A DNA stretch of 64,000 nt from Candidatus Vogelbacteria bacterium RIFOXYD1_FULL_46_19 (GCA_001824825.1 MHTK01000002.1:6020-70019); one strand, 5' to 3'; positions 6,544 through 60,105 are shown, numbered from the stretch's first letter. Made by a program: numbers and translations. The notes: generated by a model from the letters alone, not told the origin.

Positions 6544-7395
6544 ATGCCCCTCGTTCAACAATACCCCGCTCTACAGTGCCTGGCCACCGCCTGCGATAAT
6601 TTAAATATTCCGTATCGCTACCTAGACCGCCATCACAACTTTATTGAAGTTAAACCGGCCGGCTCTTTGTCTCTATTTTTTGCCAACGCCGCCACTCCCT
6701 TTAACTCTGATGTGGTAAACCGTATCTGTGCGGACAAAGAATTTACCTACCTCCTGCTAAACGAAGTGATCGCGATGCCGGCCACGCTTGGCTTTTTCAA
6801 CCCGGATTCACTCGATATTTACGAACTTTATCGCAATGTTAAATCAAGGACAGAAATTATTGAAACCATCCAACAAAATTTTTCTTGGCCCCTAATAATG
6901 AAACGGAACGCCGGCCAACAAGGCAACAATGTTTTTCTCTGCCCCACCGAAAAAGATTTACATCGCGCTCTAAAAAAAATCTACAATCCCAAGTCCCAGC
7001 AGTACGACTACGTGGCCCTGGCCCAAGAGTACATCAAACCAAAAGCGGAGTACCGCTTGATTTTCTTCCGTGAGAAACTTTTACTTGCTTATGAAAAAAG
7101 CATAGTCGGCGCCACCTTTAATGGCAATCTAAGCCCCCTACACTGGGACCAAGCCCAGGCAATACCAATTGAAGACCAAGCTCAGTTGGCCGCTTTAGCG
7201 GATTTCGCCCAACCTATTTTTGCGCCCTTGCCGGTCACTTTTGCCGGCTTAGACGTCATTGAAGACGAACAAGGTAAATTGTGGCTAATTGAAATCAATA
7301 CCCGGCCGGGCTTTAAATTTTTCATTCATTCCAACGGTGAACAACCCTTAATTGAGATGTATGAAAAAATTCTTCAGGCGATCTTGGCCCACTAA
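6544..7395 (+). CDS. ATP-grasp domain protein (RimK/GshB-like ligase, specificity unknown)
   Basis: 283 aa with ATP-grasp C-terminal motifs (KLWLIEINTRPGF) and a lysine-rich nucleotide-binding region. Confidence 0.62.
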   Translation: MPLVQQYPALQCLATACDNLNIPYRYLDRHHNFIEVKPAGSLSLFFANAATPFNSDVVNRICADKEFTYLLLNEVIAMPATLGFFNPDSLDIYELYRNVKSRTEIIETIQQNFSWPLIMKRNAGQQGNNVFLCPTEKDLHRALKKIYNPKSQQYDYVALAQEYIKPKAEYRLIFFREKLLLAYEKSIVGATFNGNLSPLHWDQAQAIPIEDQAQLAALADFAQPIFAPLPVTFAGLDVIEDEQGKLWLIEINTRPGFKFFIHSNGEQPLIEMYEKILQAILAH

Positions 7396-8005: not shown

Positions 8006-8471
8006 ATTTATTACATAATGGACAAAGGACTTTCCACAAGCGAGCTAAGGCTAGGGCCACCGACCCGGTTAAAGCCAGCTGGACCGTGGGCGACCAACCC
8101 ACTTTAAAGACCGGCACCAGAGGCATTAGATCGTTATAAGCCCAGCGGCCAGTATAAAGAGCAAAGAGTTCGAACCCGACAGCAAAGATAAGAGCTAAAA
8201 CAGAGAGCCAGATTAACTCTTTTTTAATATCCCGCCCACCAACCAAGAACCTAGCTATAGCGGCCAAAAAGGTAATCACCACGGCATCAAACACAGCCGC
8301 CCGCAGTAAAATGAAAATGGTAATCGATTCCCCTTGGTAGTGGGTATACAAAACCTCATGTGTGAGCTCCCAGCCAGCATTAAAAATAAAAGCGGCCGAC
8401 CAAACAGCAATAAACTCCACAACTATATGGGGTCTAAAAGTAAGCGCTAGAACCTTGGTGGTATTACACAT
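7998..8471 (-). CDS. Polytopic membrane protein (hypothetical)
   Basis: 157 aa with 4-5 predicted TM helices. It is translationally coupled to the 7400..8005 gene. Confidence 0.5.
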   Translation of the reverse strand: MCNTTKVLALTFRPHIVVEFIAVWSAAFIFNAGWELTHEVLYTHYQGESITIFILLRAAVFDAVVITFLAAIARFLVGGRDIKKELIWLSVLALIFAVGFELFALYTGRWAYNDLMPLVPVFKVGWSPTVQLALTGSVALALARLWKVLCPLCNKYD

Positions 8472-8607
8472 CCTATCAATTATATAAGATTTTTTAGTAG
8501 GATACCTCTACCCTATTAACAATAGACCAACGACAAGTAAGTTCAAGTGTATTAAAATGTAAATACTAAATATAAGATCTCTTATTTCGATCAATAAAAG
8601 ATATTCT

Positions 8608-11600
8608 ATGAATGAAAATAATATTGAGTCTAATATTCCCAAACTGGATTACAATAATCTCCGGCTAACTCTTCACGACCTAACCCGAAAATTAAAAAAT
8701 TTACCAAAGCCTGACTTGTCGGGCTTTGGACCATCTAGAATTGAAGAAATTAAAAAACAATTAGAGAAACTCGCACCAGAAATTGAGGCCATAATATCTG
8801 ACCCGGCTATCAAATCCGAAAATAAAGAGCTTCTAAAAAATCAACTAAACAGAATCGAGGATAGATTAAATAAAACCTCTGACAATGAAACAAGCCCTTC
8901 AACCACTAAAGGCAGTGCAACAAAGGAAGAAAAGGAAGAGCAACTTGAAGTGGTGAAAAAAGCTTTTTTGAACGCTAAAGATATTATTGACACCCCAGAG
9001 GTAGACCCGGCCGATAAAAAGTCCGCAGTTGAAGCTTTCTATCAAGCTCGACAAGATTACTACCACCAAATGGAAGGAGGAGAAAAAGTGCCCGAAGAAT
9101 TAAAAGATGCCAACTTGCGTATTGCTAAAGTGGAAAAAGACCTGCAAACTCCCACCAATCAGGAATCCATTAAATCACCTGCAAAAACCAAACTAAAGCC
9201 AGATGAAATAACTCTAGAACCGGTCGACAAAACCGCCGGTAGGGCAATTAAATTTTCCGACACCGACCATCGAGAAATACAATCCGCCCTAAAACCAGAA
9301 ACCGAAACAGACAGTGCTCTTGATAGTTACTGGCGACTAGTAGAAGAAACGGCTAACCCCCAAGTACCCCCAACCATTCAAACACCGGAAGAACAAAAAC
9401 GTTCGAGGGGGCAGGTTAAAACCAATCAATTTGTCCAAGACCATCTCGGAATGCTATCACGTGCCGAAAGAGAAAAAATACCCTCAGGATTAAAACCTCA
9501 AGACCCAATTCAAGAACACCCGCCGGTAGTGGAGCCAGCGGCCACACTAGGGGCCGAGGCAACTCCTGTGTTAGTAGACAACGAGGAAAAAAAACCAGAC
9601 GAGCTGACTGCCTTGCTGGAAGAATCAAAGGTGCAAGAACAAGCGGAACTAGACAAAATTACTCAAGCCATCAGTGAAACTACCACTTTAGACGAACTTC
9701 AAACAGCGATCGATAACCTAGGTGGCTTGCAAGGAAGCGACTACTATTCATCGGAAGATCTGAAAAAGCAAATAGACCGTTATTTAATATCGTCAAATAA
9801 ATTCTTTTTAACTGGAGCCGGTGGCTTTCGCGACAAAATAGTGGAACTAGTAAAGCTAGATTCAACTAAAAGCTCAGAGGCCAAACTCCAGGAGCTCCCA
9901 GGATTTAAATTTAGAGACGGAGCAACAAGTACAGCCAGTAGCAATCAAGTAGAGCCAGCAACATCTGAGGTGGGTTCAGAAACAGAAGAAAAAACGGAAA
10001 AGGATGAAAACCTTCAAGACTTATTAGAAGCACTACTAGCTGAAGCTGATGATGAAAAAAATGCGTCTTTAACTCCAAACAACTTCTCCTCGACCAAATT
10101 ACCAACCCTAGAAAACAATGATGATAACACGGAGTTACCAGCTTTAGATCCAGTATTTGTCCAAGAAATGATGGCTAGCCTACCTCCAGAGGAAGTAGGT
10201 TCAGCCACCAACTTTGAAAGCTTGCCGACACCCACTCAAGAAAAAATTAAAGTAGGACTATACAATCTGGGCTGGCAGTTTAAAAAAACTAAAAGCGACT
10301 GGATGGCTCTGGCTCTTGAAAGTATGACCAGCAAGAAAGTTTCCGCTGACGAACTAAAAAATTTAAGCCCAGGCAAGCGTTTAGCCCACGGCTTAGCCGC
10401 CAGCTATCACCGCGATAGCCAGCAAGCCGAATCGCGAATGAGGGAAATAGCCCAGTTAAAAGCTAGGGGTGAAAGTACAAGTTTACTGAGGCATAAGCTA
10501 GGCAATGTAGGCCAACCTTTAAGCACACTTGTAAAAATCGGCCGCACTGTGGCTGACTTAACTGGGGTGGCGATCATTAATCCAACCCGATATGTTTTAG
10601 CCGCCAGTATGATGGCCGGACGAGTAGCGGAAGCTGGTAAAGAAGCTCGTTTTTCCAGTCAGATAACACTAAAGCGAGCTGGTGTAGAAAAGTATCAAAA
10701 CGAGCTTAATTTTGAAGAGCTGGCCTTTGGATCACTAAAAGAAAAATTTCAGCAATTTGAAAATTTTAAAAATCGTAAAAATCATTTACGAAAAATTGCT
10801 CGCGGTATCGCCGCAATGCCTAAAAGAACAACTGGTATGTCGGAAGAAGAAAAGACACAGTTCCAAGAGAATAAATTCACTGGCAATGAAGAACAACTAG
10901 ACTCAGTAAACATCGAAAATGCTTTGACTAAAGTGTCCGATTTTATTGCCGACGGCGTCCAAGGACTTTTACGTTTCGATACCCAACAAAACATTAACGC
11001 CATTGATAAGAAACTCCGTAAGTTAGAAACAAATAGCAAACTGACAGCCGAACAAAAAGAAGCGGTCAAACAAAAAATATTCAAGGCTCATAGCCGGCGA
11101 ATAAAAGATTTAGAAAGAATGACCAGTCGCTATGCCACCATTGATGTTTTGGCTCACACCGCGCGCACTTTAGAATTTGGCGCCAAAGCCACTACAAACA
11201 TTATGATGGTGGAAAGTTTACTGTTGGCGGCTGCCAATATTTACGATCACTTGTTACAGCAAACAGACGAAACAGTAGCCACCACTAATCAAATAGAACA
11301 AATTGAGAAAACCATAAGTGATGATTCACAATCTACCCCAGATGAAACCAATAAATCAACAGAAGATACCGGTCGTTTGTCCTACAACTACCTTTTACCA
11401 AGTGATGAAATGGAAACACAATCTGTCCCTGTTGCTAATGTCGGCTCAACACCAACAGAAAAATTAACAGCAGGTGACCCAGTAGATGTTGAACCTCAAG
11501 CTTCAAGCGAGAGGGTTATCCCACCTGTTTATCAAGAACTAGCCAAGTCAACCTCTCCAGCAGAAAGCGTCACCCCAGATGGAGAAAAACTACCCCTCCT

Positions 11601-12942
11601 CGAACAAACTGGGGCAGAAGTGTCCTATGGTGATAAAATCAGCGTCATTTATGACATCGGTCGCGGGGGCGACTTCGACTCACTCGACCAAGCTCTGCGC
11701 CGAATTGTGGTTCAAGAATACGACTTTAGTAGCGGTGACAAAATTTTAAGCCCAGTGGAAGCGGCTCAACTTGAAAATGTCTTGGCCAATGTCCGGGAGA
11801 TATTAGGCGGACGCACGATCGCCAGCCTCGGGCCTGATGACTTAAAAGGGGTAGCGGAATTTTCAGGTGGCAAACTCACTATTACCGACTACCAAGAATT
11901 TGATCAGAAAATTCTAAGCCCCTTATTTGAGCGAGCTAGCGAAAACATTACCGCCGACTCCCCGGCTGTAAAATTTGCTCAAGCTACTTCCATCGACAAA
12001 TGGCAAGAAATGTTAAGTCAACGGTTTACCTCAGACGACTATAAAGTGGCCACCAACTTCACCGAATCTCCAGCCAGCCCCGCTGTCATCGAGCCTGAAT
12101 CGGAAATGTCCAAAATAAACATCTCCACCAACTCAAGCATCCAACCCACCTCGGCTGAGGAAATTCTAATAAAAACCAAGGTTCCGGAAACACCAGCTGG
12201 TGAGCAAATTACACTTAAGGGCCCCGAAAGCTACAACTCGCCAGCCCCTACCGAAACTCCCCGTATCCCTGATAGTAAACTGATTGATCGAATAGCTGTC
12301 GAAGAAGCCATAGTAAATCTAGGTTACCGCTATAGCCTCCCCACTCCCTTAGCCAGAGCGGTTATGGAATTGGGGCTATCTGATCAGGTAGAGGGCTTAA
12401 CTGAAAGCGGAGTTGCGAAGCCCGGCAGTCAGTTTGATTTTCTGATCAAAATCTGTGGCCCTGATGGCTTTAGTCAAATCTTAAATGACTTAGGGCAAAT
12501 TGATCGTAATCAATTAAATATCTTTAATCAGCTTCACACCGACGGGGCCACTATCGAGCAAATTCGAAGCGCCATCAACTTTACCGATAAGATAAAGTGG
12601 GAGACCGGCCGAGAACTAGCTTTGGCGCGGGCCATCGCCTTCAATAAAACCGAATATTGGCAAGCTGCTTTGGGTAAGGATCTAGTCCCCAATGGGCCAC
12701 AAACAACGAGATTTACCAAAGACGGTGACTTAGTCTTAAAGCAAATTGAAGGACTGAAAGGATCTCTCATTATTGACCCCAACCGACAAAAAATAATGTT
12801 GACCAATCTATTCGACCGGAAGGGTATCAAACTTGAACCGGACCGCTATATTAGTTTTAAAGATAAACCAATTGCTGAGGCTCTAAATAAAGCCCGGGAA
12901 ATAGTGGCTAGCGCTCGCCTACGTGCTACCAAAGCGACCTAA
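8608..12942 (+). CDS. Giant acidic/lysine-rich low-complexity protein (1444 aa), hypothetical
   Basis: Single uninterrupted ORF of 4.3 kb. The product is E/K/Q/S/T-rich with coiled-coil-like segments, no signal peptide and no recognisable catalytic motif. Confidence 0.7.
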   Translation: MNENNIESNIPKLDYNNLRLTLHDLTRKLKNLPKPDLSGFGPSRIEEIKKQLEKLAPEIEAIISDPAIKSENKELLKNQLNRIEDRLNKTSDNETSPSTTKGSATKEEKEEQLEVVKKAFLNAKDIIDTPEVDPADKKSAVEAFYQARQDYYHQMEGGEKVPEELKDANLRIAKVEKDLQTPTNQESIKSPAKTKLKPDEITLEPVDKTAGRAIKFSDTDHREIQSALKPETETDSALDSYWRLVEETANPQVPPTIQTPEEQKRSRGQVKTNQFVQDHLGMLSRAEREKIPSGLKPQDPIQEHPPVVEPAATLGAEATPVLVDNEEKKPDELTALLEESKVQEQAELDKITQAISETTTLDELQTAIDNLGGLQGSDYYSSEDLKKQIDRYLISSNKFFLTGAGGFRDKIVELVKLDSTKSSEAKLQELPGFKFRDGATSTASSNQVEPATSEVGSETEEKTEKDENLQDLLEALLAEADDEKNASLTPNNFSSTKLPTLENNDDNTELPALDPVFVQEMMASLPPEEVGSATNFESLPTPTQEKIKVGLYNLGWQFKKTKSDWMALALESMTSKKVSADELKNLSPGKRLAHGLAASYHRDSQQAESRMREIAQLKARGESTSLLRHKLGNVGQPLSTLVKIGRTVADLTGVAIINPTRYVLAASMMAGRVAEAGKEARFSSQITLKRAGVEKYQNELNFEELAFGSLKEKFQQFENFKNRKNHLRKIARGIAAMPKRTTGMSEEEKTQFQENKFTGNEEQLDSVNIENALTKVSDFIADGVQGLLRFDTQQNINAIDKKLRKLETNSKLTAEQKEAVKQKIFKAHSRRIKDLERMTSRYATIDVLAHTARTLEFGAKATTNIMMVESLLLAAANIYDHLLQQTDETVATTNQIEQIEKTISDDSQSTPDETNKSTEDTGRLSYNYLLPSDEMETQSVPVANVGSTPTEKLTAGDPVDVEPQASSERVIPPVYQELAKSTSPAESVTPDGEKLPLLEQTGAEVSYGDKISVIYDIGRGGDFDSLDQALRRIVVQEYDFSSGDKILSPVEAAQLENVLANVREILGGRTIASLGPDDLKGVAEFSGGKLTITDYQEFDQKILSPLFERASENITADSPAVKFAQATSIDKWQEMLSQRFTSDDYKVATNFTESPASPAVIEPESEMSKINISTNSSIQPTSAEEILIKTKVPETPAGEQITLKGPESYNSPAPTETPRIPDSKLIDRIAVEEAIVNLGYRYSLPTPLARAVMELGLSDQVEGLTESGVAKPGSQFDFLIKICGPDGFSQILNDLGQIDRNQLNIFNQLHTDGATIEQIRSAINFTDKIKWETGRELALARAIAFNKTEYWQAALGKDLVPNGPQTTRFTKDGDLVLKQIEGLKGSLIIDPNRQKIMLTNLFDRKGIKLEPDRYISFKDKPIAEALNKAREIVASARLRATKAT

Positions 12943-12991
12943 ACAGCCCGACCCACCCGGGCCCCCACTTGAAGTTCTACCTTAAAAATAG

Positions 12992-13024
12992 TTATCCACA
13001 ACTATTCCACTTGGCTGTGGATAA
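12992..13024. promoter_or_regulatory. Pair of perfect DnaA boxes in inverted orientation (TTATCCACA at 12992-13000, TGTGGATAA at 13016-13024)
   Basis: Exact consensus 9-mers spaced 15 bp apart, about 65 bp upstream of the 13090 gene. Confidence 0.45.
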
Positions 13025-13089
13025 CATCTCATCAATGTTATAATTACCACTATATTTACTAGCTTAAAAGTATTAACTGCCGTCTTTTT

Positions 13090-15237
13090 ATGAAATATTT
13101 ATTCAACTTATTAACCCTCGTGGCCCTGATTTTAATCCCCACTTTTGGACGAGCCCAATCAGGATCTACTGGCTACTGTTACAACTTCACCCGAAATTTA
13201 ATTCCAACATCAGTAGGAGCAGACGTTACCGCTCTACAAGATCTACTTCGCAGTGAAGGACATTTACAAATAGACAATTCCACTCGCTACTACGGCACGC
13301 AAACGACCGCCGCTTTAGCTAGCTGGCAAAGGGCTCACTGGCCCATCCCAGCCATTGGCCTCTTTGGTCCCTTAACTCGGGCAGCCTTTGTCAATCTCTG
13401 TCAGCAAGACGATAATCAAACAGATAATGAAACGGAAACCGGTACCACTCCCAACCTTAACCTATCAACCTCCGGCCCCAGCAAACTTACTACCGGCGAA
13501 ATAGGTACCTGGCAAGTAACTTCCAACGCGGAAATGGAACACACTGTCGTCTACAGCGCCAACTGGGGTGACAATATAATGACTCCGGCCTTTAGACGAG
13601 CCGGTCCTAGAACTGTCCCCTTTACTCACACCTACCAAAAAGCCGGAACTTATGAAATTACCTTTACGGGTGACCAAACCACTGATATCACCGAAGTAAC
13701 GGTTTCGGACCCCAGTCCAACCACCGACAACCCTGATACCAATGAAAACCCCACTAACGAGGCGAACGACGAAGATGATCCAAATAACACCGAGAAGGAC
13801 CCCACTATCTCTTTCACTCCAGAAATAAGTAGCCCTGTTAATCTTGAGCCCTCAGACTCAATTAACTGGGAAGTCAAAGCGCAAGACAGCAACAATGATT
13901 TAAGATCTTTATCTTACCGCTGGGTCGACCAGAGAACGACTAACAAAGTAAATTCTCCAACAACTAGAGGCACTAGCCAGCTAACCAGAACAGTCAAGCG
14001 AGTATTTACCAGACCAGGAACCTATACCCTCTCAGTCGCCGCCGAAGATGCGGAGAAACGAGTCACCACTGAAAGTATTAAAGTGGTGGTCGGCGAAGTA
14101 TCGGCCAATAACGCCGGGCCATCAATTATACTTAACCCTAACAACCTGGATGGATCCACTCACACTATCCCGGCCGCTGTTAACTGGAGTGTAACTGCCA
14201 CCGATCCAACAGGCAACTTAAGCTCTTTAACTTATAAATGGTCAGACGAAGTTTACACTCACTACGCGGCCAGCAACCTTAACACGAGCAAAATTACTCG
14301 ATCAATCAGTCGTAGTTTTGCTCGAGCCGGCGCCTACAGTTTAACCATCATCGCCATCGACCGCACCGGCAACAAGGTCAACAAAACTGTCAAGATTACG
14401 GTCAATTCTACTGTTTCTGGCACCAACTCAGCTCCCGCCATCCAAGTAAGGTCCACCCCTCCCTCTAGCGCCCCCAGCGCTAATCAAAGCGCTAATATGC
14501 TAGGTACGATTAGTGGCACGGCTCCGATGACTGCCACTTGGAATGTCACCATTACCGATGCCGACCGCAACCTAAAATCTCTAACCTATTGGTGGTCTGG
14601 TGACTCCGGTTCAGAAATTGTCATGAATGCTCCCAACCTCACCACCGGCACCGATTACCTGACGACTCGCATCACCAAAACCTTCACTTCACCCGGCCAG
14701 TATTCTCTAAACTTAGTAGCGGTTGACACGGCCGGCGAGCGAACCAACCGACAAGCCGGAGCTAATATTCAATCACCAGTAAATCTAAGCAGTTATGCTC
14801 AACCGATTTTCATTAGTGAAATTCCCAGCACTTTAACCGTCGGTCAAAGGCTACCAGTCACTATTAAGATGATGAATACCGGCAACAGTACTTGGTACAG
14901 AAGTCAGACTATCGGAACAGTTGACCGTTCATTTAAACTTGGCTCTCAAAGTCCTCAAGACAATATCAACTGGGGAACAGCTCGGGTTAATTTAGAAGAA
15001 GATGTGACTCCTGGTAAAATTACAACGTTTAACTTTACGGTGACAGCTCCTAGTGAAGCGGGCTTCTACAATTTTCAGTGGAAAATGCTCCAGGAAAACT
15101 TAGGCTGGTTTGGCCGAGCCTTCCCTATCAATCCTAAAGTGATCGAGGTCAAAGCTGGCTCGACCACTTCCTCTGGTGAACTTAGTCAACTAGCTTCTTC
15201 CCTCCAAGCCTTAACCCAATTACTGAAAAATTACTAA
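13090..15237 (+). CDS. Secreted protein with peptidoglycan-binding-like domain, three PKD/Ig-like repeats and a C-terminal NBR1-FW-like domain
   Basis: N-terminal signal peptide (LLTLVALILIPTFGRAQS). A PG_binding_1-like segment follows (VTALQDLLRSEGHL...YYGTQTTAALASWQRAH). Three repeats share the pattern ...PGxYxLxxxAxDxxG.... The C-terminal W-rich segment (WYRSQ...NWGTARV...FQWKMLQENLGWFG) resembles the FW / N_BRCA1_IG fold. Confidence 0.65.
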   Translation: MKYLFNLLTLVALILIPTFGRAQSGSTGYCYNFTRNLIPTSVGADVTALQDLLRSEGHLQIDNSTRYYGTQTTAALASWQRAHWPIPAIGLFGPLTRAAFVNLCQQDDNQTDNETETGTTPNLNLSTSGPSKLTTGEIGTWQVTSNAEMEHTVVYSANWGDNIMTPAFRRAGPRTVPFTHTYQKAGTYEITFTGDQTTDITEVTVSDPSPTTDNPDTNENPTNEANDEDDPNNTEKDPTISFTPEISSPVNLEPSDSINWEVKAQDSNNDLRSLSYRWVDQRTTNKVNSPTTRGTSQLTRTVKRVFTRPGTYTLSVAAEDAEKRVTTESIKVVVGEVSANNAGPSIILNPNNLDGSTHTIPAAVNWSVTATDPTGNLSSLTYKWSDEVYTHYAASNLNTSKITRSISRSFARAGAYSLTIIAIDRTGNKVNKTVKITVNSTVSGTNSAPAIQVRSTPPSSAPSANQSANMLGTISGTAPMTATWNVTITDADRNLKSLTYWWSGDSGSEIVMNAPNLTTGTDYLTTRITKTFTSPGQYSLNLVAVDTAGERTNRQAGANIQSPVNLSSYAQPIFISEIPSTLTVGQRLPVTIKMMNTGNSTWYRSQTIGTVDRSFKLGSQSPQDNINWGTARVNLEEDVTPGKITTFNFTVTAPSEAGFYNFQWKMLQENLGWFGRAFPINPKVIEVKAGSTTSSGELSQLASSLQALTQLLKNY

Positions 15238-15428: not shown

Positions 15429-16391
15429 ATGATTTGGATTCTAAACCTTGCTTTGTTTGTAGGATCAGCCAGCCTCCTATACATAGCTAGTGAAATGATT
15501 GTCTCTGGACTAGTACGCCTGGCTCGCTATTTTGGTTGGAAAGAGTTTGTGGTAGCTTTTTTTGTGATGGCTATGGCCGCCTCTTTACCTAATTTTTTTG
15601 TTGGCCTAACTTCAGCCCTTAAAAACATTCCTCAGTTATCCTTCGGGGATATTATGGGTAATAACATTATTGCTCTTACTGTCGCCGTCGCTTTAGCGAC
15701 TTTTTTTGCTCCCAAAAAGGAACTCCCAGCCGATGGTCAGACTATTCAGTCGACCCTTATTTTCACCACCGTGGCCGCCCTCCTACCCCTCCTACTCATT
15801 GTCGATAATGTTTTGTCCCGGGGTGATGGGCTAATTTTAATTTTATTTTTCCTGTCTTACATTTATTGGCTGTTTTCTAAAAAAGAAAGATTCACTAAAA
15901 CTTATGATCCAACTGACACAGCCAAGCTAAACTTATCCCAAGCCCTACTAACCACCACTAAAATTACCGGTGGAATTGGCATCTTGTTTGTAGCCTCTCA
16001 AGGCATTGTACTATCAGCCACCTTCTTAGCCACTGACCTAGGACTGCCTTTGATTTTGGTCGGTATTATAATTTTGGGTCTGGGTAGCGCTCTGCCGGAA
16101 ATTTATTTTGCTTTCAGTTCAGCCAGGCGGGGGGAAACCGATATGATCTTAGGTAACTTGATGGGTTCGGTTATTATCCCCGCCTCTTTAATCTTAGGAT
16201 TAGTGGCCATTATTCACCCCATCAGCAGTCAAAGCCTAGCGTGGATTGCTAGCAGCCGGATGGTGCTCCTTCTAGCCATCATTCTATTTTTTGTCTTCAC
16301 GCGTTCCAGTCACAAAATTTCCCAACGTGAAAGTTTGATTTTACTGCTAGTTTATCTCGTGTTTATAATGACCATCATTTTTTATAAGTAG
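15429..16391 (+). CDS. Ca2+/Na+ antiporter (CaCA / YrbG family)
   Basis: 320 aa, about 10 TM segments, with two alpha-repeat motifs (GDIMGNNI... and LGSALPE...GNLMGS). Confidence 0.8.
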   Translation: MIWILNLALFVGSASLLYIASEMIVSGLVRLARYFGWKEFVVAFFVMAMAASLPNFFVGLTSALKNIPQLSFGDIMGNNIIALTVAVALATFFAPKKELPADGQTIQSTLIFTTVAALLPLLLIVDNVLSRGDGLILILFFLSYIYWLFSKKERFTKTYDPTDTAKLNLSQALLTTTKITGGIGILFVASQGIVLSATFLATDLGLPLILVGIIILGLGSALPEIYFAFSSARRGETDMILGNLMGSVIIPASLILGLVAIIHPISSQSLAWIASSRMVLLLAIILFFVFTRSSHKISQRESLILLLVYLVFIMTIIFYK

Positions 16392-16404
16392 AAAAATGAA
16401 TGAT

Positions 16405-18069
16405 CTAAATTTTACCAACAATTGGTTTAACCGGTAATTTAACATAGAAAGTACTGCCATGGCCGGAACCCTCCGACTCCGCCCAAATCTTACCCTGGTG
16501 AGCCTCCACAATTTTTTTAGCGATAAATAGGCCGTGTCCAGTGCTGTGAACGTTAATCTTGGCTGATTCCCTGCCTTTGCCACCTTCAGTAAATAGCTTT
16601 TTCTGATCATCATTAGAAAGACCAACACCTGTATCTTCAATCGAAAAAAGATAATTATTTGTATCTTGAGTTAACTTAACTTTAATGCCCCCGGTTAATG
16701 TGTAATTTAAAGCATTGTCAATTAGATTTTTAAATACATGTTCCACCAGTTGACCCTGATCCCCGGTAATCAAACCTTCGCCACTCGGTAGCCCAACCTC
16801 AAAACTTAACCCTTTATGCTTGGCCTGTTTTTCGTAATCGAGGCTTAATTTTTTTATAGTTTCAGTTAAAGAAAAAACTTTAAAATTATACTCTACCTTA
16901 CCACTACTAAGATCGGCTGACTTTAATATATTTTCTACAGTTTGACGTCCTTTGGCGTTAGATTCAGACGCTTCCTTAATCAATGATTTTACTGATTCTG
17001 GAACCAATCCATAGTCACCGCTTAAAATTGACTCATACGCAAATTGATTCTTAGTTAAATAATTTTTTACCTCGTGGCTTAAAAAATGAAGAAAATCCTC
17101 CTGCCCTTCATTAGATAAAGCCAATTTGTCATTGGTCGCTTTTAATTGTAGAGAAATCATTTCCTCACGTTCCTTGGCTTTGATTTCTCTCTTAACCCCA
17201 CGAATAGTGATAGCACTTAATATAATATAAACGACTAAGGTCAAAACAATAACAAAATAAATATAGGTCAGATCTTGCACAAATAGAAGTGAAGCAATGA
17301 CCAAACCCTGAGTCACTAATAGGGCTTTGACCCCAATTAACTTAATGTTAAAAGTATGAAATTTAACAATTAAGTAAGACAAAATGGCAGTAAAGATGAG
17401 CATCCCAAACAAACCCAACTGTTCTAGGGCAAACAGACCCAAAACCGAAGCGACCTGCCACGTAAAAATTAACAAGGCCACGAAAAATATAAGCCCCAAG
17501 GAAAACAGAAGTTTTTGCAGTCGATCTTTAGGATTGGCCGCTCGCTTTACTTTAACCACCCCCACCACCACCAACCAGACAAAAATTAATCCGGAAACAA
17601 TGTTTTGATAAAGATCCATCGCTGGTGAGGTAACTAGTTCACAATTAGTTAAATCAAAATATAGAATATTCCACGGTGAAAAAATCAAAGCTCCGGTTAA
17701 GGCAAACAAAGCAAACCAGAACAACTTGTAAGTCATCTTTACCGGCTTATCATTAAGAAACACATATAGCAAATACAGTGAAACGAGGGGTATGGAAAAC
17801 TGAATAAGCTGAGACAGTGGCCAAATAATGGTAATTAGATTAACGTTAACATTTGTCCATAAGATAAGGTTAAAAAATACTAATAGACAAAATAAAATAT
17901 TTAAGATTAATAAAACTTTAACGGCTAAACTTTGACGATTCTTATAAAATAAATATATCCCTGATCCTAACGCGACAAAAAAAGCCGGTAAATGTGAGTA
18001 ATACAAAAGCGGCAAAGCATCAGTTGAAAATAAGAAGTAAATTGGCGGTGCAACGTCAGTACAAAACAT
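16405..18069 (-). CDS. Sensor histidine kinase with large multi-TM N-terminal sensor domain
   Basis: 554 aa. The N-terminal 300 aa is polytopic membrane. There is an H-box (SHEVKNYL) and an HATPase_c domain with N, G1 and G2 boxes (DNALNYT..., IEDTGVGL, GHGLFIAKKIV). No response regulator is adjacent. Confidence 0.85.
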   Translation of the reverse strand: MFCTDVAPPIYFLFSTDALPLLYYSHLPAFFVALGSGIYLFYKNRQSLAVKVLLILNILFCLLVFFNLILWTNVNVNLITIIWPLSQLIQFSIPLVSLYLLYVFLNDKPVKMTYKLFWFALFALTGALIFSPWNILYFDLTNCELVTSPAMDLYQNIVSGLIFVWLVVVGVVKVKRAANPKDRLQKLLFSLGLIFFVALLIFTWQVASVLGLFALEQLGLFGMLIFTAILSYLIVKFHTFNIKLIGVKALLVTQGLVIASLLFVQDLTYIYFVIVLTLVVYIILSAITIRGVKREIKAKEREEMISLQLKATNDKLALSNEGQEDFLHFLSHEVKNYLTKNQFAYESILSGDYGLVPESVKSLIKEASESNAKGRQTVENILKSADLSSGKVEYNFKVFSLTETIKKLSLDYEKQAKHKGLSFEVGLPSGEGLITGDQGQLVEHVFKNLIDNALNYTLTGGIKVKLTQDTNNYLFSIEDTGVGLSNDDQKKLFTEGGKGRESAKINVHSTGHGLFIAKKIVEAHQGKIWAESEGSGHGSTFYVKLPVKPIVGKI

Positions 18070-18072
18070 GGT

Positions 18073-18405
18073 TTATATGTTAAATTCTTCAGGGCCGGTA
18101 CAAGTCTCCCCTTCTTCGACCTCATCTTCGGTGCAATAAGTTATACGACAATTTCCCGTACGACAAAAATCATAACAATCGTCACGAGCAGAACATAGTC
18201 CATAATCTTCAGCAGACATCAGGGTATATTTATAAAAACTCTGACTATCATAAAAACAAGCTTCCACTGCTGGATCACAATTAATAGTTGTTTTTATTAA
18301 AAATTTTTGACTAACAACAACGTAAAAATATCCCCACCCGCTCACCAAGACCAAGACCGAGACTGAAGCTGCAAATATAATCTTGTTGAGGTCTTTAGGC
18401 TTCAT
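18073..18405 (-). CDS. Small membrane-anchored cysteine-rich protein (10 Cys in 75 aa ectodomain)
   Basis: 110 aa with one N-terminal TM helix and a Cys-rich acidic C-terminal part. Its stop lies 3 nt before the start of the histidine kinase gene. Confidence 0.5.
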   Translation of the reverse strand: MKPKDLNKIIFAASVSVLVLVSGWGYFYVVVSQKFLIKTTINCDPAVEACFYDSQSFYKYTLMSAEDYGLCSARDDCYDFCRTGNCRITYCTEDEVEEGETCTGPEEFNI

Positions 18406-18573
18406 AGACTAATCCAAGATTGAAATTAAAAGACGAGGCCCTTTTCTAATATGGTATTTAAAAAAAATATAACAACCGTCACAATTACTAAAATAACTAC
18501 GGAATTGAAATAACCTAGATCTAACTTCTGACAACAACTTTGAAGAAACTTTCATTAACTAAGTATATCAGCT

Positions 18574-19491
18574 TCAGGCTACGAACAGAAGATAAGTACC
18601 CACCCCAACCACCACCATAGCAAGCAACTTCTGAAAGATATATTTCAGCTCAATTTTTTCAGCTACTAAATTAGGAAAAACCAGAGTTAGTATGATTCCC
18701 AAGATGAGAACACTTAACGGTTGATAGGAGTTAACCAAGAGAACCAAGGCCACTGGTGCCAAAATAAAAGAATAGGCAAACAGAAAGTTGCCGACTAATA
18801 CTAATATTTCGTTTAAGATATTTATAGAAAATACTCCAGCTGAATTTCTTTTTACCATATAAACAAAGCCTTGCCGACACGATCTAAATCCAATAACTAG
18901 AAATAGTCCGACTAGAGCTAAACTAAAACTCTGCCAAAATAACGATATCCACAAGCTCTCTTCAACCGCCGCCAATTTAAATAAGACTGATTCAAAAGAT
19001 GAAAAAAAAGCAGCCAGAGTCATGAGGAACGCAGTTTTAGTTTTAAGATGAAACCGGTTGTCGCGGTCCACATCAATGGAAATAATTAAGGCCCCGATAA
19101 TAATTAAGGCCATAGCTGCTAACTGCATACTATTTAAAATTTCATTCAAGATGAAAAAACCCAGGATGTAACCGAAGACTGGTACTAGTTGATAAAAAAC
19201 TACCACCACCGAAGCTTCATCGTCCGCCAAAGCCACAAAGTAAAGATATAGGGCGGCTGTTTCCAATAAACCACTGGCTATAAGAATAGCCAAATTAAAA
19301 GGTGTGACATTAAAAACCAAGGGATTTAACCAATATAAAACGGGCATAGCCAAAAAACCAATCAGTGAAGAAAAAACCATCAAAGTTGAAATACCGGCAG
19401 TTTTGAAGTACTTCTCCAGTAACAACTTGTCTATATGGTTACCAATACTCCACAGTATCGGAGCGGCTATGGCGACAAAAAACCAACTCAT
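18574..19491 (-). CDS. EamA/DMT-superfamily transporter
   Basis: 305 aa with 10 TM helices and a two-EamA-repeat architecture. It starts 3 nt after the upstream ATP-grasp gene. Confidence 0.75.
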   Translation of the reverse strand: MSWFFVAIAAPILWSIGNHIDKLLLEKYFKTAGISTLMVFSSLIGFLAMPVLYWLNPLVFNVTPFNLAILIASGLLETAALYLYFVALADDEASVVVVFYQLVPVFGYILGFFILNEILNSMQLAAMALIIIGALIISIDVDRDNRFHLKTKTAFLMTLAAFFSSFESVLFKLAAVEESLWISLFWQSFSLALVGLFLVIGFRSCRQGFVYMVKRNSAGVFSINILNEILVLVGNFLFAYSFILAPVALVLLVNSYQPLSVLILGIILTLVFPNLVAEKIELKYIFQKLLAMVVVGVGTYLLFVA

Positions 19492-19494
19492 ATA

Positions 19495-20859
19495 TTATCG
19501 CTTAATCGGAATAATAGAATCTTGATCACTAAATACAAACTTGGAAATGTGCTTTAAATATCCCCATTTAACGAGCTTTAAATAATCATGTTTAACAAAT
19601 TTAGCACCTATATCATGACGATAAAACATTTGGGGAATTTTTATGTTTAACAACAATTTATAGGCCTTTTGTCGTGCCTGACTTATAGTGGAACCAAAAC
19701 CTGTTACATACATTGCATACCCACGCCGATCGGAAATGTAATATTGAGATTGTACCTCCTTAGCACCACGTAAAGCCACTTCTTCAAAATGGATATGCTT
19801 TAAATCGGTTTGAGTTACTTTTCGACTAAAGTGGATATCAGTATTATAAGAAGAATTTTTATCTAATTTATAGTTATATGGGAAAGGAGGTAGGGCTACG
19901 GTTACCACCACACCATAACCTTTCTTCCATTTGAGGTTAAATTTTTGTCCTGAAGCAACCGCGAAGAGCAGATCTCCCCAGGGAGAGCTATTTATTTCAG
20001 ATTGAAGGTGTACAATCGGCGAACCTAAACGAGCAGTAGCCTCTAGAGGAAACGCCCCTTTTTGATTAACAATGCAGTTAACAGAAATATCCCCACGGAA
20101 GTTAGCTTTGACTAGAAAGGGTTTTAACTTGGCTAAAGTTTCAGTGAATAACTTATTTTTTTCATCGTTATCATACCAAGCCAGAGTTCCCATCTCGCTT
20201 GTTACTGGACCAATATCGCCAGGAAAGAGCCTGGTGTGTTCAAAATTAACTTCAATCGGACCAACCCAATCATATCCGTTGAAAAATCTTCCCACTCCCA
20301 TTTCAATACCATCAACATATTCTTGAAGAGTAATCTCATTCATCTTAAGTAAACCATTACGGTTGTAAGACTCTAAAACGTTAACCACATCCTCACCGGT
20401 GTCCATATGCCCAGTGTAAGTCAGACTTTTAAAACTATGATTATTATGCTTCAACACCCAACGCTTTGGGTTTTTTCTTATAAAAGAAATAGCACTCTTG
20501 ATATCAAAAAAATTTTTTAACTCAGCGATTTGTAAACCACTTACTTTAAAAATTTGTTGACCAAATTCACGGTCAGTTTCAAGTTTTTCACCTAGTTCTG
20601 AACCACCAAAAACAGTATAACCCTCCTCTCTCAACTTATCCTGAATAGCCCCATAACCAACATCATCAAAAATAATAAGGCCATCCGTTCCCACCCATGA
20701 TAAATCCTGGCGCCAATTATTAGTTTTTGGTACTAAATTATTAAAATTCTCCCGAGCTGATTTTTCCTCAATAAATAAATGCACATCATGACCTTCACGG
20801 TGAAGCAATAATGAAAGGTGACCCGCGATTAAATCGTTGGAGACAAAGAGTATTTTCAT
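19495..20859 (-). CDS. PurD-like ATP-grasp ligase (divergent; not a canonical GAR synthetase)
   Basis: 454 aa with GAR-synthetase-like N/A/B-domain layout (WVGTDGLIIFDD..., RWVLKHNNH..., PGDIGPVTSEMG). It lacks the PurD GGREHA signature. Confidence 0.68.
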   Translation of the reverse strand: MKILFVSNDLIAGHLSLLLHREGHDVHLFIEEKSARENFNNLVPKTNNWRQDLSWVGTDGLIIFDDVGYGAIQDKLREEGYTVFGGSELGEKLETDREFGQQIFKVSGLQIAELKNFFDIKSAISFIRKNPKRWVLKHNNHSFKSLTYTGHMDTGEDVVNVLESYNRNGLLKMNEITLQEYVDGIEMGVGRFFNGYDWVGPIEVNFEHTRLFPGDIGPVTSEMGTLAWYDNDEKNKLFTETLAKLKPFLVKANFRGDISVNCIVNQKGAFPLEATARLGSPIVHLQSEINSSPWGDLLFAVASGQKFNLKWKKGYGVVVTVALPPFPYNYKLDKNSSYNTDIHFSRKVTQTDLKHIHFEEVALRGAKEVQSQYYISDRRGYAMYVTGFGSTISQARQKAYKLLLNIKIPQMFYRHDIGAKFVKHDYLKLVKWGYLKHISKFVFSDQDSIIPIKR

Positions 20860-20916
20860 GCTAAATATTATACATATTTTAGAATCTTTGTCAATACTAC
20901 AGATTTAGCTGACTAA

Positions 20917-21372
20917 TTACTTACGCCGTAACACCAGCATCCAGTGTTTGGAATTTTTCCGACCATTGTGCCAGCGTCGCATAAACTCGTTTTGCTTCAA
21001 TTTAAAACGCTCCCCCAGCCACGGATCGTTTAGAATTACTTCCGTTTCAGACAGTCCCACCACGACAGCGTAATGACCCTGATTGGTAGCTGGTTCGATA
21101 TAATTTACCATTACCGGCGAGCCTTTTTTTAAATAATATCCAATAAGGGCCAGACTACCACGACCAGCAAAAGTACAAGCAAAACCTAGTTGGCGTGACA
21201 CCCCCTCCAGGCGACGGTGACTAACACCATGACGAGGGTCGGTTTTAAGCTTGCGTTCTAACCAGGCTTCGCTTTTATGGCAGCCCCAGTGACCAAGCAC
21301 CGATTGCAGGGCCGCCGCTGCACAAGTATAGACTTTATCTTGTTTATAGTAAGGAGTCTGGAGAACGGTCAT
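20917..21372 (-). CDS. Peptidase C39-like (papain-fold; BtrH-like) domain protein
   Basis: 151 aa with a Cys nucleophile context (YTCAAAALQSVLGHWG) and a downstream His (GHYAVVVG), typical of the C39-like family. Confidence 0.58.
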   Translation of the reverse strand: MTVLQTPYYKQDKVYTCAAAALQSVLGHWGCHKSEAWLERKLKTDPRHGVSHRRLEGVSRQLGFACTFAGRGSLALIGYYLKKGSPVMVNYIEPATNQGHYAVVVGLSETEVILNDPWLGERFKLKQNEFMRRWHNGRKNSKHWMLVLRRK

Positions 21373-21866
21373 TTATTTAGAGTAAAGAGTTATTAAAATT
21401 GAGGGCTCGTTCAGGCAAAGCAAAGCCCGTCTAAGGACGAGCTTTTGGAGTGCAAAGTGTAAATGTCATATTTCTTTTCCTTCCGACACCAAGCGCAAAC
21501 TCGAAGCTGATCCAAATTGGCCACAAATGCGGTCTTCCTCATCAATCACCGCTTGAGTTGACTGACTCCACCGGAACAGCCGCAGCACCCCGGTGGGCAG
21601 ATAACACATTTGCACCACCCTCGATCCCGCAATAAGACTGGTCGAAATAATTTCCCACCAGCGGCCACCACAACAAGAACACCTAAACTGCTGACCTGGG
21701 ACCAAATTGTTGAAATCAGATTCCGTGCGAATCACTTTACACCTCCTTTCTAAGATCAACCGACCTGTCTACATTAGAGCAAATTATTTTCTTTAAAGGA
21801 AGAGCAAGTAGTGGTTAGCACATTCAAACCATCAAAAAAGCCAAGCGGATAATAACCACTTGGCCA

Positions 21867-22457
21867 CTAAACAGGTTGCCAGACAAAGTAGCTCGTCTTG
21901 TCTGGGTCCGTTTCGACATAACCCTCCGGTTGGTACAAATGGACCGGCAGAACAGTTTCAAACAGGTGCGCCCGGTGCTTGGTCCCCAGCCCTGGATAAG
22001 AAATGGAGGCTTGAACCGGAAAGATTTTCGTACCTAGAAAATTTAAAGAAATATTATCTTCAATTCCCAGTTCCTCCCGTAGGCCACGGCTGGCTGCCTC
22101 GGTTGGTGTTTCGCCTGGTAACATTTTTTCCGACATACTGTAATCCAGACTACGCCGGTTCTCTCGACCGTCTCGAAACACTTGGCGGTCTTCCCTCAGG
22201 CGCAAGCGATCCGTCGGCAAGTCAAAGTAAACATTAATCCTAACTGCCTCAACACAGCGGACGAGCGGCCAAGTGGTCGAACCCTCGCCCCAGCTACACT
22301 CACCTAAGACCAGCTCGCGGTGTAAATGCTTGATGGTTTTGGCTCGGCCCTGCTCCCCCCAGCTACCAAAGGGGATATTATGGCGAGTAAGTAACTCTAA
22401 AAGAGCTTCAATATCCACTACCAATCCTCCTCGATCGGTTAAGTTCGAATTGTACAT
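21867..22457 (-). CDS. NUDIX-like hydrolase (degenerate Nudix box)
   Basis: 196 aa. The segment PGETPTEAASRGLREELGIED resembles the Nudix box. GC is clearly higher than in flanking genes. Confidence 0.4.
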   Translation of the reverse strand: MYNSNLTDRGGLVVDIEALLELLTRHNIPFGSWGEQGRAKTIKHLHRELVLGECSWGEGSTTWPLVRCVEAVRINVYFDLPTDRLRLREDRQVFRDGRENRRSLDYSMSEKMLPGETPTEAASRGLREELGIEDNISLNFLGTKIFPVQASISYPGLGTKHRAHLFETVLPVHLYQPEGYVETDPDKTSYFVWQPV

Positions 22458-22567
22458 CTACCCTATACTGCCCCAAAACGGCTGGGTTGGCAATTTAAAT
22501 AAAGGCTATTATACCCAGCACTTTAAAAAGAACCCGGAAAAAGCTTTTGCTCTTCCGGGTTCGTGCA

Positions 22568-24244
22568 CTACAGTGACTTCAAGAGCTGTGATGCCCGCTC
22601 CTCCGCCTGTGCCACATATGTCTTGTAATCAGGAATCCTAGTGAGAACCCCTTCAGATAAGGTATAAGTAGAATCAAGTCGTGCTTTTTCAAGGAAGTAT
22701 CGATCGTGGGACACGAGCAATATGGTTCCTCGATAGGCTTCGATTGTTTCCTCTAGAGCTTCGAGTGCCTCGAGATCGAGATGATTGGTAGGCTCATCTA
22801 GGACCAGCACATTGACTGATTGGGCGGAAAACAAAGCAAGAAGCAATCGAGCGCGGCCGCCGGGACTCAGAGTACCGATTGGCTGCTTAACTTGACTCTC
22901 CTCGAAACCAAACCTTGCAAGCTTGGCATATGAATCTTGTTCTCTGAACCCTGCGCGCTCCTTGAGGAATTCGAGAAGCGTGCGATCACGAGGCAAGCTT
23001 TCGTGCTCCTGCATCATGTTTCCGATTTTGACACCAGAACCGATCTCGATCGTGCCACCACGTGCCACCAGTTGACCAGTAATGGTCTTGAGAAGAGTTG
23101 ACTTTCCTGTGCCGTTTAAGCCCATGATGCCAACCCTGCTCCCATACCGCGCCTCAAATGACATTGGACCGATAGTGAAACCCTCCGGATATCCTGCTAC
23201 AACGTCAACGAGACGTATATCAAGCGTCCCGGGACCGACTTCGGCCTTGAGCGGAATCTCAAACGGATCGCGTTCGATAGGTTTTTCAACTTTCTCCATC
23301 TGGTCGATCCGTTTTTCAATTACTTTCGCTTTCCTTCCAGATCCTCCTGCGCGATCTCGCTTGAAACCTCGCAAGAACTTGTCATTGTCGCTTCCCTGCC
23401 AGTTCGATCCTTTGGCCGAAGCAGCTCTCTGCTGTCGTGCTTGATCAGAAAGTCGTTCAATCTCCTCCCGTTGGAGTCGATATTCTTCCTTCTGCCGAGC
23501 AATGCGTTTCGCCACCATCGCCAGGTAATCACTATATGTACCACCTGAGATGTTGAGTACGCGCGTATGTCGGTCAAGTTCCAAGATTTTCCTCACGACT
23601 CGATCAAGAAACCGGCGATCGTGAGAAATGACAATGCAAGCAGCATCAGACTTCCGGAGGAAATCCTCAAGCCAGATAAGTGCTGGTAGGTCAAGATTAT
23701 TTGTCGGCTCATCAAGGAGTAAGAGATCGACACCTTTGAGGAGAATCCCCGCTAGTGCCACCTTGCTTTTCTGTCCGCTACTTAAATCGGACAGACGATG
23801 ATCAATGCCGACGTTTTCAAGACCGAAACCTGCAAGCATCACTTTGATGTGATGCTCAAAGGCGTAACCATCGAGACGCTCGTATTGATGGTGCGCCTCC
23901 CCATACTCATCGGACTTCGCCTTGTCCTCAAGCTGAGAAGCAAGGGTCTCGAGTTTTTGTTCAAGAGCATCGACGCCTGTGATCCGCCTCAAGTACTCAC
24001 TAATCGTTTCATCGCCCGAGAGACTGGTGTCCTGCGGTAGATATCCGATGCACGTATTCTTAGCAAGTTCAATCTCGCCAGCATCAGGCTCCACCAATCC
24101 TGCAACGATCTTGAGAATGGTTGTCTTACCAGTCCCGTTGTCGCCGACTAATGCCACCTTCTGCCCTTTTGCCAAGGAGAAGGAGACATCGGCAAGCACA
24201 GTCAGACTGCCGTAATTTTTTTGAATGTGTTTTGCTTGTATCAT
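22568..24244 (-). CDS. ABC-F family ATPase (two tandem ABC domains, no TMD)
   Basis: 558 aa with two Walker A motifs (GDNGTGKTT, GLNGTGKST), two ABC signatures (LSGGQKSKV, LSPGGRARL) and an approximately 80 aa charged interdomain linker. GC is about 52% against about 40% background. Confidence 0.9.
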   Translation of the reverse strand: MIQAKHIQKNYGSLTVLADVSFSLAKGQKVALVGDNGTGKTTILKIVAGLVEPDAGEIELAKNTCIGYLPQDTSLSGDETISEYLRRITGVDALEQKLETLASQLEDKAKSDEYGEAHHQYERLDGYAFEHHIKVMLAGFGLENVGIDHRLSDLSSGQKSKVALAGILLKGVDLLLLDEPTNNLDLPALIWLEDFLRKSDAACIVISHDRRFLDRVVRKILELDRHTRVLNISGGTYSDYLAMVAKRIARQKEEYRLQREEIERLSDQARQQRAASAKGSNWQGSDNDKFLRGFKRDRAGGSGRKAKVIEKRIDQMEKVEKPIERDPFEIPLKAEVGPGTLDIRLVDVVAGYPEGFTIGPMSFEARYGSRVGIMGLNGTGKSTLLKTITGQLVARGGTIEIGSGVKIGNMMQEHESLPRDRTLLEFLKERAGFREQDSYAKLARFGFEESQVKQPIGTLSPGGRARLLLALFSAQSVNVLVLDEPTNHLDLEALEALEETIEAYRGTILLVSHDRYFLEKARLDSTYTLSEGVLTRIPDYKTYVAQAEERASQLLKSL

Positions 24245-46844: not shown

Positions 46845-46947
46845 AACCAAAATTGTAGCACAAGGACTCCCTTTGCCCACGCTGACCTCTGGTAACAAAA
46901 AAGCGCGCAAGGGTCTAAAGACTCTTGCGCGCTATCCACAGAACAAT

Positions 46948-59422: not shown

Positions 59423-59608
59423 AAGATAAGAATGAAAAAGGGTTAAGAAAAGTGGAGATAATTTTTCTAATTATAGGAGGATAAGCTATTATAACAAACC
59501 CTGTCTAATTGTTGATAACCGGTGGATTAGTTGAGGATAGTCATTATTTCATATTTGAGGCCTCGGGGACAGTTGCCAAGGCTATTTTTTTAATGTAGAC
59601 TAGCCTTC

Positions 59609-59743: not shown

Positions 59744-59745
59744 AT

Positions 59746-60087: not shown

Positions 60088-60105
60088 TTAAATACTCCTT
60101 AAACA

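Follow-up and report, generated by a model that had tools for sequence, protein, structure and literature searches.

We analysed 64,000 nucleotides (64 kb) of Candidatus Vogelbacteria RIFOXYD1_FULL_46_19, a member of the class Paceibacteria. This whole stretch is referred to as the window, and coordinates are those of the window unless a related locus is named. The region from 16405 to 21372 carries five genes. Four of these form a module that recurs across the class and that is defined by an ATP-grasp ligase with the fold of PurD, the glycinamide ribonucleotide (GAR) synthetase of purine synthesis. The genes and the promoter-like site among them are as follows.

20917-21372, minus strand: stand-alone C39-like cysteine peptidase, 151 amino acids, outside the module (Pfam)
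20867-20894, minus strand: promoter-like site, TTGACA-16 nucleotides-TATAAT, inside the 57-bp gap (consensus match)
19495-20859, minus strand: PurD-fold ATP-grasp ligase, 454 amino acids, the gene that defines the module (Pfam, NCBIfam, fold match)
18574-19491, minus strand: EamA/DMT (drug/metabolite transporter) permease, 305 amino acids (Pfam EamA, hydropathy)
18073-18405, minus strand: single-pass membrane protein, 110 amino acids, eight cysteines (anchor model, cysteine count)
16405-18069, minus strand: sensor histidine kinase, 554 amino acids (HATPase_c, conserved His, N and G boxes)

From the peptidase through the ligase, permease and small protein to the kinase, the intergenic gaps are 57, 3, 168 and 3 bp. 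The open reading frame (ORF) calls agree on this point with the first-pass annotation, which had listed five same-strand genes with these gaps and had read them as one module, with the peptidase and the ligase as a pair that acts on a peptide or amino-acid conjugate.

We compared 80 species-representative loci that contain a ligase homologue (48-68% identity), with up to 10 kb on each flank. Partners were counted as ORFs clustered within 5 kb of the ligase in these 80 loci, many of which are cut by contig ends. A kinase homologue was found in 63 loci, an EamA permease homologue in 62, and the small membrane protein, recognised with a hidden Markov model (HMM) of its shared anchor, in 57 (58 of 81 in the HMM scan). 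All three partner types occur in 40 of the 80 loci, and every locus has at least one. Where at least 5 kb of sequence is available on both sides of the ligase (48 loci, the window included), a kinase or a permease is present in 46. The four-gene module at 16405-20916, consisting of ligase, permease, small protein and kinase, is thus conserved across the class Paceibacteria. The earlier idea of a module for making, moving and sensing a small-molecule conjugate holds for these four linked genes and fails for the peptidase.

Gene order and orientation vary by lineage among the related loci, and adjacency is kept. In the commonest layout, the kinase, an optional enzyme and the small protein lie on one strand, the ligase is divergent from them and the permease is convergent on the ligase; the collinear order of the window is one among other layouts. 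One locus (L062) has a natural fusion of two components, with the small-protein anchor at the N-terminal end of the kinase (ORF 8148-10013 of that locus, minus strand, 611 amino acids versus about 555). In others (L074, L077, L078, L084, L085 and L087), a different polytopic protein lies beside the ligase in place of EamA. Because the linkage survives rearrangement, one fusion and one apparent replacement, it argues for a functional unit rather than a frozen gene order. The individual parts are of known kinds; their combination and the PurD-derived ligase family are uncharacterised, and our literature search returned no account of the module, nor any of PurD-like proteins from Patescibacteria. 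A known anti-phage defence system was considered and rejected, as the PADLOC defence models gave nothing specific for the module, their sole match being the generic ATPase domain of the kinase. Of the other recurrent neighbour clusters, c9, c18, c19 and c25 had no Pfam match and c23 had a weak, sub-threshold one; searches of PDB sequences with c18 and c25 gave nothing useful.

Next, we focused on the ligase. Pfam finds GARS_A and GARS_C above their cut-offs in this protein, and the same scan gives no match to GARS_N (PF02844). The ligase scores 106 bits against the purD model TIGR00877, for which the cut-off is 288. Its N-terminus reads MKILFVSNDLIAGHLSLLLHREGH and has no GGREHA loop, and HMM alignments with PurD chains start only at about residue 73. 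An AF2 (AlphaFold2) model made from 20 homologues, with a pLDDT (predicted local distance difference test) of 86.9, had PurD as its top fold match (Foldseek TM about 0.72, 18-20% identity), followed by biotin carboxylases and PurK. PurD is thus the best match in Pfam, NCBIfam, PDB sequences and fold alike, and the Joint Genome Institute (JGI) annotates the homologues as phosphoribosylamine--glycine ligase. These matches favour a simple alternative, in which the ligase is the divergent GAR synthetase of the organism and its neighbours are an inherited gene order without shared function. The low TIGR00877 score and the missing GARS_N and GGREHA already speak against it, as does the survival of the linkage under rearrangement.

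The substrate residues of the ligase point the same way. We mapped the residues listed for Aquifex PurD (PMC8880213) onto the ligase by HMM and pairwise alignment. Those kept (PurD E100 = ligase E94, K103 = R97, K143 = K137, E192 = E186, E283 = E273 and R287 = R277) are invariant among the aligned homologues, and PurD D212 is conservatively swapped for E207. In contrast, the magnesium-site asparagine N285 of PurD is an invariant threonine in the ligase family, the glycine ligand E292 is an invariant isoleucine (I282 in the ligase), and the position of K214 is variable. The GPNTGGMG stretch of PurD is GPxTSEMGT in the ligase, and its glycine-rich GLAAGKG loop is absent from the ligase in the alignment. 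The PS00184 pattern, R-[LF]-G-D-P-E-x-[EQIM], reads RLGSPIVH in the window; in an alignment of 20 sequences its Asp position holds Ser, Thr or Cys and its Glu position an invariant Ile. Because the ATP-, magnesium- and carboxylate-binding residues are conserved, the ligase should form an acyl-phosphate from a carboxylate and hand it to an amine, and the substrates of PurD are not to be assumed for it.

A missing GARS_N domain and a lost PS00184 Asp have been used before to conclude that haloarchaeal 'extra PurD-like' proteins are not GAR synthetases (Brown et al. 2011, PMC3261824). The ligase resembles two of these proteins, Hlac_1553 and rrnAC0307, which likewise lack GARS_N and do not conserve the PS00184 Asp. 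With PurD itself (TIGR00877; PDB 2yw2, 2ys6 and 1gso) it has in common the four-domain fold, GARS_A and GARS_C, and the ATP, magnesium and carboxylate residues, but the low identity and the losses listed above place it outside that family. Unlike PurD, it is also not accompanied by purine genes: across the 80 loci, about 1.3 Mb of neighbourhoods in all, no other gene of purine synthesis is a recurrent neighbour of it. Nucleotide synthesis is reported to be absent or incomplete in Patescibacteria, the genomes studied being of the class ABY1 and not of Paceibacteria (PMC11809585). From these features the ligase is predicted not to be a GAR synthetase or housekeeping PurD, as the first-pass annotation had proposed when it described an ATP-grasp enzyme without the GGREHA signature.

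To describe the family beyond this locus, we collected 1652 homologues of the ligase; those listed are 53-68% identical to it, and the named ones come from Patescibacteria. The wider family, obtained by exhaustive profile search at E<=1e-30, comprises 659 cluster representatives. The signature FDD / TGEMGT / ETRGYP is common to the 110 full-length representatives examined and absent from PurD. Ten members of the wider family that were tested scored 59-124 bits on TIGR00877, all far below the cut-off of 288. Named members come from Omnitrophota, Micrarchaeota, Woesearchaeota, Thermoplasmata, Nitrosopumilaceae and others. Four contexts from outside Paceibacteria (Omnitrophota, Thermoplasmata, a Chlorobi relative and Nitrosopumilaceae) had no common theme and, unlike the Paceibacteria loci, no set of permease, kinase and small protein; an attempt to derive the function from distant members was abandoned because these four contexts had no shared theme. 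Some family members of about 750-1120 amino acids (e.g., P0138 and P0144) contain inteins near profile position 275, the catalytic ExTxR motif. Another member, P0220 (1236 amino acids), is a ligase fused to a minor capsid domain of the phage SPP1 gp7 type. A phage origin of the ligase was also considered and rejected: a search of proteins in phage records gave mostly true purD in contaminated records and one distant ligase match at 27% identity.

The boundary of the module lies between the ligase and the peptidase. The promoter-like site in the 57-bp gap is the sole 12/12 match to the sigma-70 consensus within 16000-22600 (6.6 kb). The end of its -10 hexamer (TATAAT) is 7 nucleotides from the ATG of the ligase, so that a transcript from this putative promoter would carry little or no leader. 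The four module genes have a guanine plus cytosine (GC) content of 0.36-0.38, compared with 0.48 for the peptidase and 0.50-0.51 for the two genes beyond it; past the kinase the value climbs again. Because a consensus promoter lies in the gap and the GC content steps at the boundary between peptidase and ligase, the five genes are predicted not to be one unit. We dropped low GC content as proof of horizontal transfer, because the probable origin region of the window, with dnaA and dnaN, is just as poor in GC. A TAnnnT sequence was found 4-12 nucleotides 5' of the ligase start codon in 30 of 49 related loci, with no obvious Shine-Dalgarno sequence. This hints at leaderless ligase transcripts, weakly so because the DNA is AT-rich. 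In many relatives (L012-L085), a divergent small-protein gene begins only about 10-70 bp from the start codon of the ligase.

The peptidase appears to be functional. It matches Peptidase_C39 (PF03412) with 54.1 bits against a cut-off of 22 and C39_2 with 52.5 bits, and its Q11, C17, H100 and D116, invariant in three relatives, align with the catalytic set of the peptidase domain of ComA (3k8u). A protein of Candidatus Vogelbacteria RIFOXYD1_FULL_46_19 is 100% identical to the peptidase, which puts the window in the Parcubacteria/Paceibacteria. These results support the earlier label of a C39-like, papain-fold protein, and the profile searches point to this family instead of the NlpC/P60 cell-wall hydrolases raised as an alternative. 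In view of a weaker resemblance to PeiR, an endoisopeptidase, the peptidase may be an amidase or isopeptidase. It shares its C39 score and catalytic set with the C39 domains of bacteriocin and competence ABC exporters (the ComA domain, PEP). Unlike these, it is a stand-alone protein without an N-terminal hydrophobic segment, it is neither fused nor next to an ABC exporter, and it has no evident double-glycine substrate.

Proximity on one strand, 57 bp apart, and the intact Gln/Cys/His/Asp set favour the view that the peptidase and the ligase act jointly on a peptide or aminoacyl conjugate, which is then exported and sensed. There is also a precedent in glutathionylspermidine synthetase/amidase, in which a papain-fold amidase is paired with an ATP-grasp synthetase. 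We tested this linkage from both sides. A phmmer search with the window peptidase found no relative in the 80 ligase loci, and an HMM of its three close relatives found a C39 relative in one of the 80 (L050), 7 kb away and beyond the kinase. From the other side, a metagenome scan gave 36 loci with peptidase relatives (33-45% identity), and the peptidase ORF was recovered in 32 of them. The PurD-like ligase, EamA and kinase were found near the C39 relative in none of 31 other loci; the 32nd is a fragment from the same organism. A lack of co-occurrence in other genomes is what the first-pass annotation had itself named as evidence against its pairing. The promoter and the GC step between the two genes argue in the same direction, and a 72%-identical peptidase relative keeps an upstream gene of 89 amino acids, on a contig that stops 92 bp past the peptidase and so ends before any ligase position.

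Further parts of the peptidase-centred model also fared poorly. The label 'BtrH-like' finds no backing, with no BtrH_N match in Pfam at E<=0.1 and no pairing with the ligase that recurs in other loci. Processing of an exported peptide had been suggested as well, but no double-glycine leader could be recognised in the 110- and 89-amino-acid neighbours, and the nearest ABC gene (22568-24244) encodes a soluble protein with two ABC_tran domains and no membrane domain rather than a C39-fused exporter. The model is largely refuted by the lack of co-occurrence. Because there is no linkage elsewhere, a separate promoter and a GC step, we place the C39-like peptidase outside the module, to which it is an unrelated neighbour. 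Upstream of the peptidase by 93 bp lies an ORF of 89 amino acids (21466-21735, minus strand), with a GTG start 5 nucleotides after a AAAGGAGGTG ribosome-binding site, a CSCCGG stretch, and no match in Pfam or PADLOC. A gene of the same size lies upstream of the 72%-identical peptidase on the other contig, because of which the 89-amino-acid ORF may be the real partner of the peptidase. A 43%-identical peptidase relative (L092) has a different upstream gene.

The permease matches the EamA family (Pfam, 46 bits). One repeat (residues 2-138) is above the cut-off and the second is unscored, and about 9-10 hydrophobic segments, nine of them clear, run along the whole protein; the norm for EamA/DMT proteins is two repeats of five helices. 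The family assignment of the first-pass annotation is retained, and its label 'exporter' reflects family habit only. Between the permease and the small-protein gene, a basic ORF of 48 amino acids (18409-18555, minus strand) nearly fills the 168-bp gap. It has no homologue in related loci, and in the closest relative (L001, L008) the gap is only 27 bp; this ORF is probably non-coding.

The 110-amino-acid protein has no match in Pfam or NCBIfam. It consists of one N-terminal hydrophobic segment and a C-terminal domain with eight cysteines that is probably external, which bears out the earlier description of a cysteine-rich, membrane-anchored protein and corrects its count of ten cysteines. In the alignment, this long cysteine-rich form shares its N-terminal anchor, MDKKSKILL...GYTFYKTVI..DY, with short ORFs of about 42 amino acids. 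Most copies of the anchor either immediately precede the kinase gene or face the ligase gene head-to-head. The constant pairing with the kinase and the fusion in L062 suggest that the single-pass protein assists the sensor as an accessory subunit.

The kinase matches HATPase_c with 82 bits and has generic histidine-kinase hits. Its polytopic membrane sensor, about 290 amino acids long and with seven or more hydrophobic segments, precedes the phospho-acceptor helix, which carries H332, and the ATPase domain. Across 64 homologues, conservation is 90% or higher at H332, N448, N452, D479, G481, G483, G511 and G513 and also at C3 and C143, and the sensor region matches the kinase core in its degree of conservation. 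HisKA_7TM (PF16927) matches 5 of 20 kinase homologues, and the window kinase is below the threshold of this model. The HisKA_7TM kinases resemble it in having a polytopic sensor directly before the phospho-acceptor helix and ATPase domain. In contrast to them, the kinase of the module has a single-pass protein as its dedicated partner, joined to it in a single ORF in one lineage, and has no adjacent regulator. An HMM for receiver domains, built from neighbours in related loci, found no match in the whole 64-kb window, which confirms the earlier view of an orphan kinase with a polytopic sensor and no response regulator. Receiver-only proteins occur in about 12 of the 80 related loci, and a minority of relatives has receiver-only proteins together with a second short kinase after the sensor.

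To investigate what the ligase may act on, we looked at amine-related genes within 5 kb of it in the 80 loci, a span of about 13 ORFs. Homologues of the AdoMet_dc family occur in 19 loci, where several abut the ligase or lie between permease and ligase. Arginase-family genes occur in eight loci, in four of them directly upstream of the kinase. Genes with the fold of the ornithine, diaminopimelate and arginine (Orn/DAP/Arg) decarboxylases occur in five, and in L074 a decarboxylase is fused to a region that, read by eye, resembles spermidine synthase. In the candidate phyla radiation (CPR), homologues of S-adenosylmethionine decarboxylase (AdoMetDC) proved to decarboxylate ornithine or arginine, and one ornithine decarboxylase of Kaiserbacteria has been validated (PMC10407285).

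Depending on the lineage, the gene that immediately precedes the kinase gene encodes a guanidinoacetate N-methyltransferase (GAMT) homologue, a SET-domain protein, a formyltransferase, an arginase-family protein or a GNAT. The GAMT homologue (E 1.7e-42 versus rat GAMT) is always just upstream of the kinase (L009, L016, L018, L034, L053 and L065); a close homologue of this animal enzyme is unexpected in ultrasmall bacteria. SET-domain proteins are adjacent to the kinase in three loci and within 5 kb in eight, Formyl_trans_N is found in four loci, and GNAT neighbours are found in L008 and L001-L003. These variable upstream enzymes all act on amino or guanidino groups. With GNAT excluded, at least one of the counted amine or tailoring families lies within 5 kb of the ligase in 40 of the 80 loci. 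Because polyamine and amine-modifying genes recur near the ligase, its amine partner would be of a polyamine or agmatine type, with a free end that is decorated differently by lineage, as read from the gene neighbourhood.

Chemistry of this kind is known from other ATP-grasp enzymes. HsvB and HsvC of phevamine biosynthesis are ATP-grasp ligases that join amino acids and polyamines (PMC6187163), and E-64 biosynthesis includes an ATP-grasp step (PMC12568646). For these enzymes, as for the glutathionylspermidine and trypanothione synthetases, the likeness to the module ligase would lie in the activation of a carboxylate followed by formation of a polyamine or agmatine amide, and papain-fold amidases are sometimes found near such systems. 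Unlike them, the module ligase comes from another ATP-grasp subfamily, with a sequence relation only at the superfamily level, and the known polyamine-ligase systems have no fixed association with a permease and a sensor kinase. The window also contains a second, unrelated ATP-grasp gene, RimK-like and of 283 amino acids, at 6544-7395 (plus strand), past the kinase and 9 kb from that end of the module. In L006 and L007, a RimK/MvdD-like ATP-grasp gene and an adjacent ORF of 39 amino acids lie beside the PurD-like ligase.

Taken together, we propose that the ligase would link an amine to a small carboxylate, which is probably a small amino acid. The likeliest amine would be of the polyamine or agmatine type, made by the decarboxylase and ureohydrolase genes that are often in the module, and a single lineage-specific enzyme encoded upstream of the kinase would modify its free amino or guanidino group. 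The permease would take the product out of the cell or, less likely, bring a precursor in. At the membrane, the kinase, with the small membrane protein as its accessory subunit, would detect the compound or an effect of it and would pass its output to a regulator encoded elsewhere. We put this scheme forward tentatively; as a whole, in which the ligase makes a polyamine-type amide, the permease moves the compound, and kinase and small partner monitor it, it falls somewhat short of being probable.

Several points weigh against it. The linkage counts are inflated by the common ancestry of the genomes. We infer the amine from neighbourhood alone, and the substrate, the product and the direction of transport are likewise inferred; in the window, no polyamine, tailoring or receiver gene was found anywhere in the 64 kb. 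Two of the three glycine ligands of PurD (Asp212, Arg287 and Glu292) are kept in the ligase, as E207 and R277, and its carboxylate substrate could still be glycine. Distant family members in free-living bacteria and archaea sit in unrelated contexts, with MgtE, with DUF1611 and an enolase-family gene, with an aminotransferase or with AsnC-type domains, because of which the chemistry of the family need not involve polyamines. Finally, two assemblies of the same population (L090 and L091), 99.97% identical to the window as far as position 20048 within the ligase gene, lack the permease, small protein and kinase. Their ligase stops at codon 270-271, just before the catalytic ExTxR motif, giving a product of 284 amino acids, and past the junction they run into SIMPL, PGK and Peptidase_S11 genes that are absent from the window. 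The join sits at a short, GC-rich, hairpin-like repeat, GGGGCG...CGCCCC. L090 and L091 may represent a strain that has lost the module by deletion or rearrangement, in which case the module may be dispensable, or they may be a chimeric assembly join.

The alternative that survives best is uptake. Here, the permease would import an acid or amine derived from the host, the ligase would trap it by ATP-dependent amide formation for use inside the cell, and the kinase would report the external supply; no product would leave the cell. Patescibacteria lack most biosynthesis and depend on import (PMC11809585), and the linkage data are compatible with either direction of flux. Importers of the DMT type occur in other host-dependent bacteria, as in the S-adenosylmethionine carriers of Rickettsia and Chlamydia. 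However, most characterised EamA-type proteins are exporters of amino-acid derivatives, the amine-producing decarboxylase genes inside many modules suggest that the amine is made in the cell, and one variable tailoring enzyme per lineage fits a released product better than an assimilated nutrient. We regard uptake as unlikely on balance.

A bolder version of the amide scheme is self-contained chemical signalling, in which the amide made by the ligase is released by the permease and read back by the seven-transmembrane (7TM) kinase and its single-pass partner. If so, the variable tailoring enzyme, which would transfer a methyl, formyl or acetyl group or take off the guanidino group, and the variable ectodomain of the small protein would give lineage-specific 'dialects'. 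This is a long shot, less likely than uptake. A peptidase that acts jointly with the ligase, and a ligase that is the GAR synthetase of the organism, are both very improbable in the light of the comparisons above.

Elsewhere in the window, a second GC-poor stretch at 56734-62040 (gene GC content 0.31-0.41) holds dnaN, dnaA, yidC and a 405-amino-acid gene of unknown function; the cumulative GC skew has its minimum at about 56-58 kb, and this stretch is probably the replication origin region. Just beyond the kinase, two very large predicted surface proteins are encoded at 8608-15237 (plus strand), one of 1444 amino acids without a Pfam match and one of 715 amino acids with PKD repeats and a peptidoglycan-binding domain. 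A Na/Ca exchanger gene is convergent with the kinase gene, the two being 13 bp apart. GC content within the window peaks at 46404-47610 (0.54), a stretch with several overlapping ORFs on both strands; its longest ORF has no Pfam match, and Rfam finds no RNA there.

Our comparisons uncovered a widespread paralogue of PurD to which the name phosphoribosylamine--glycine ligase is routinely and wrongly given, an error that distorts the metabolism reconstructed for reduced genomes. Paceibacteria make up a large part of the candidate phyla radiation and have very small genomes with few sensory systems. A set of genes that is kept in about 80 of their species probably serves something important, be it polyamine handling, the envelope, or communication with hosts or kin.

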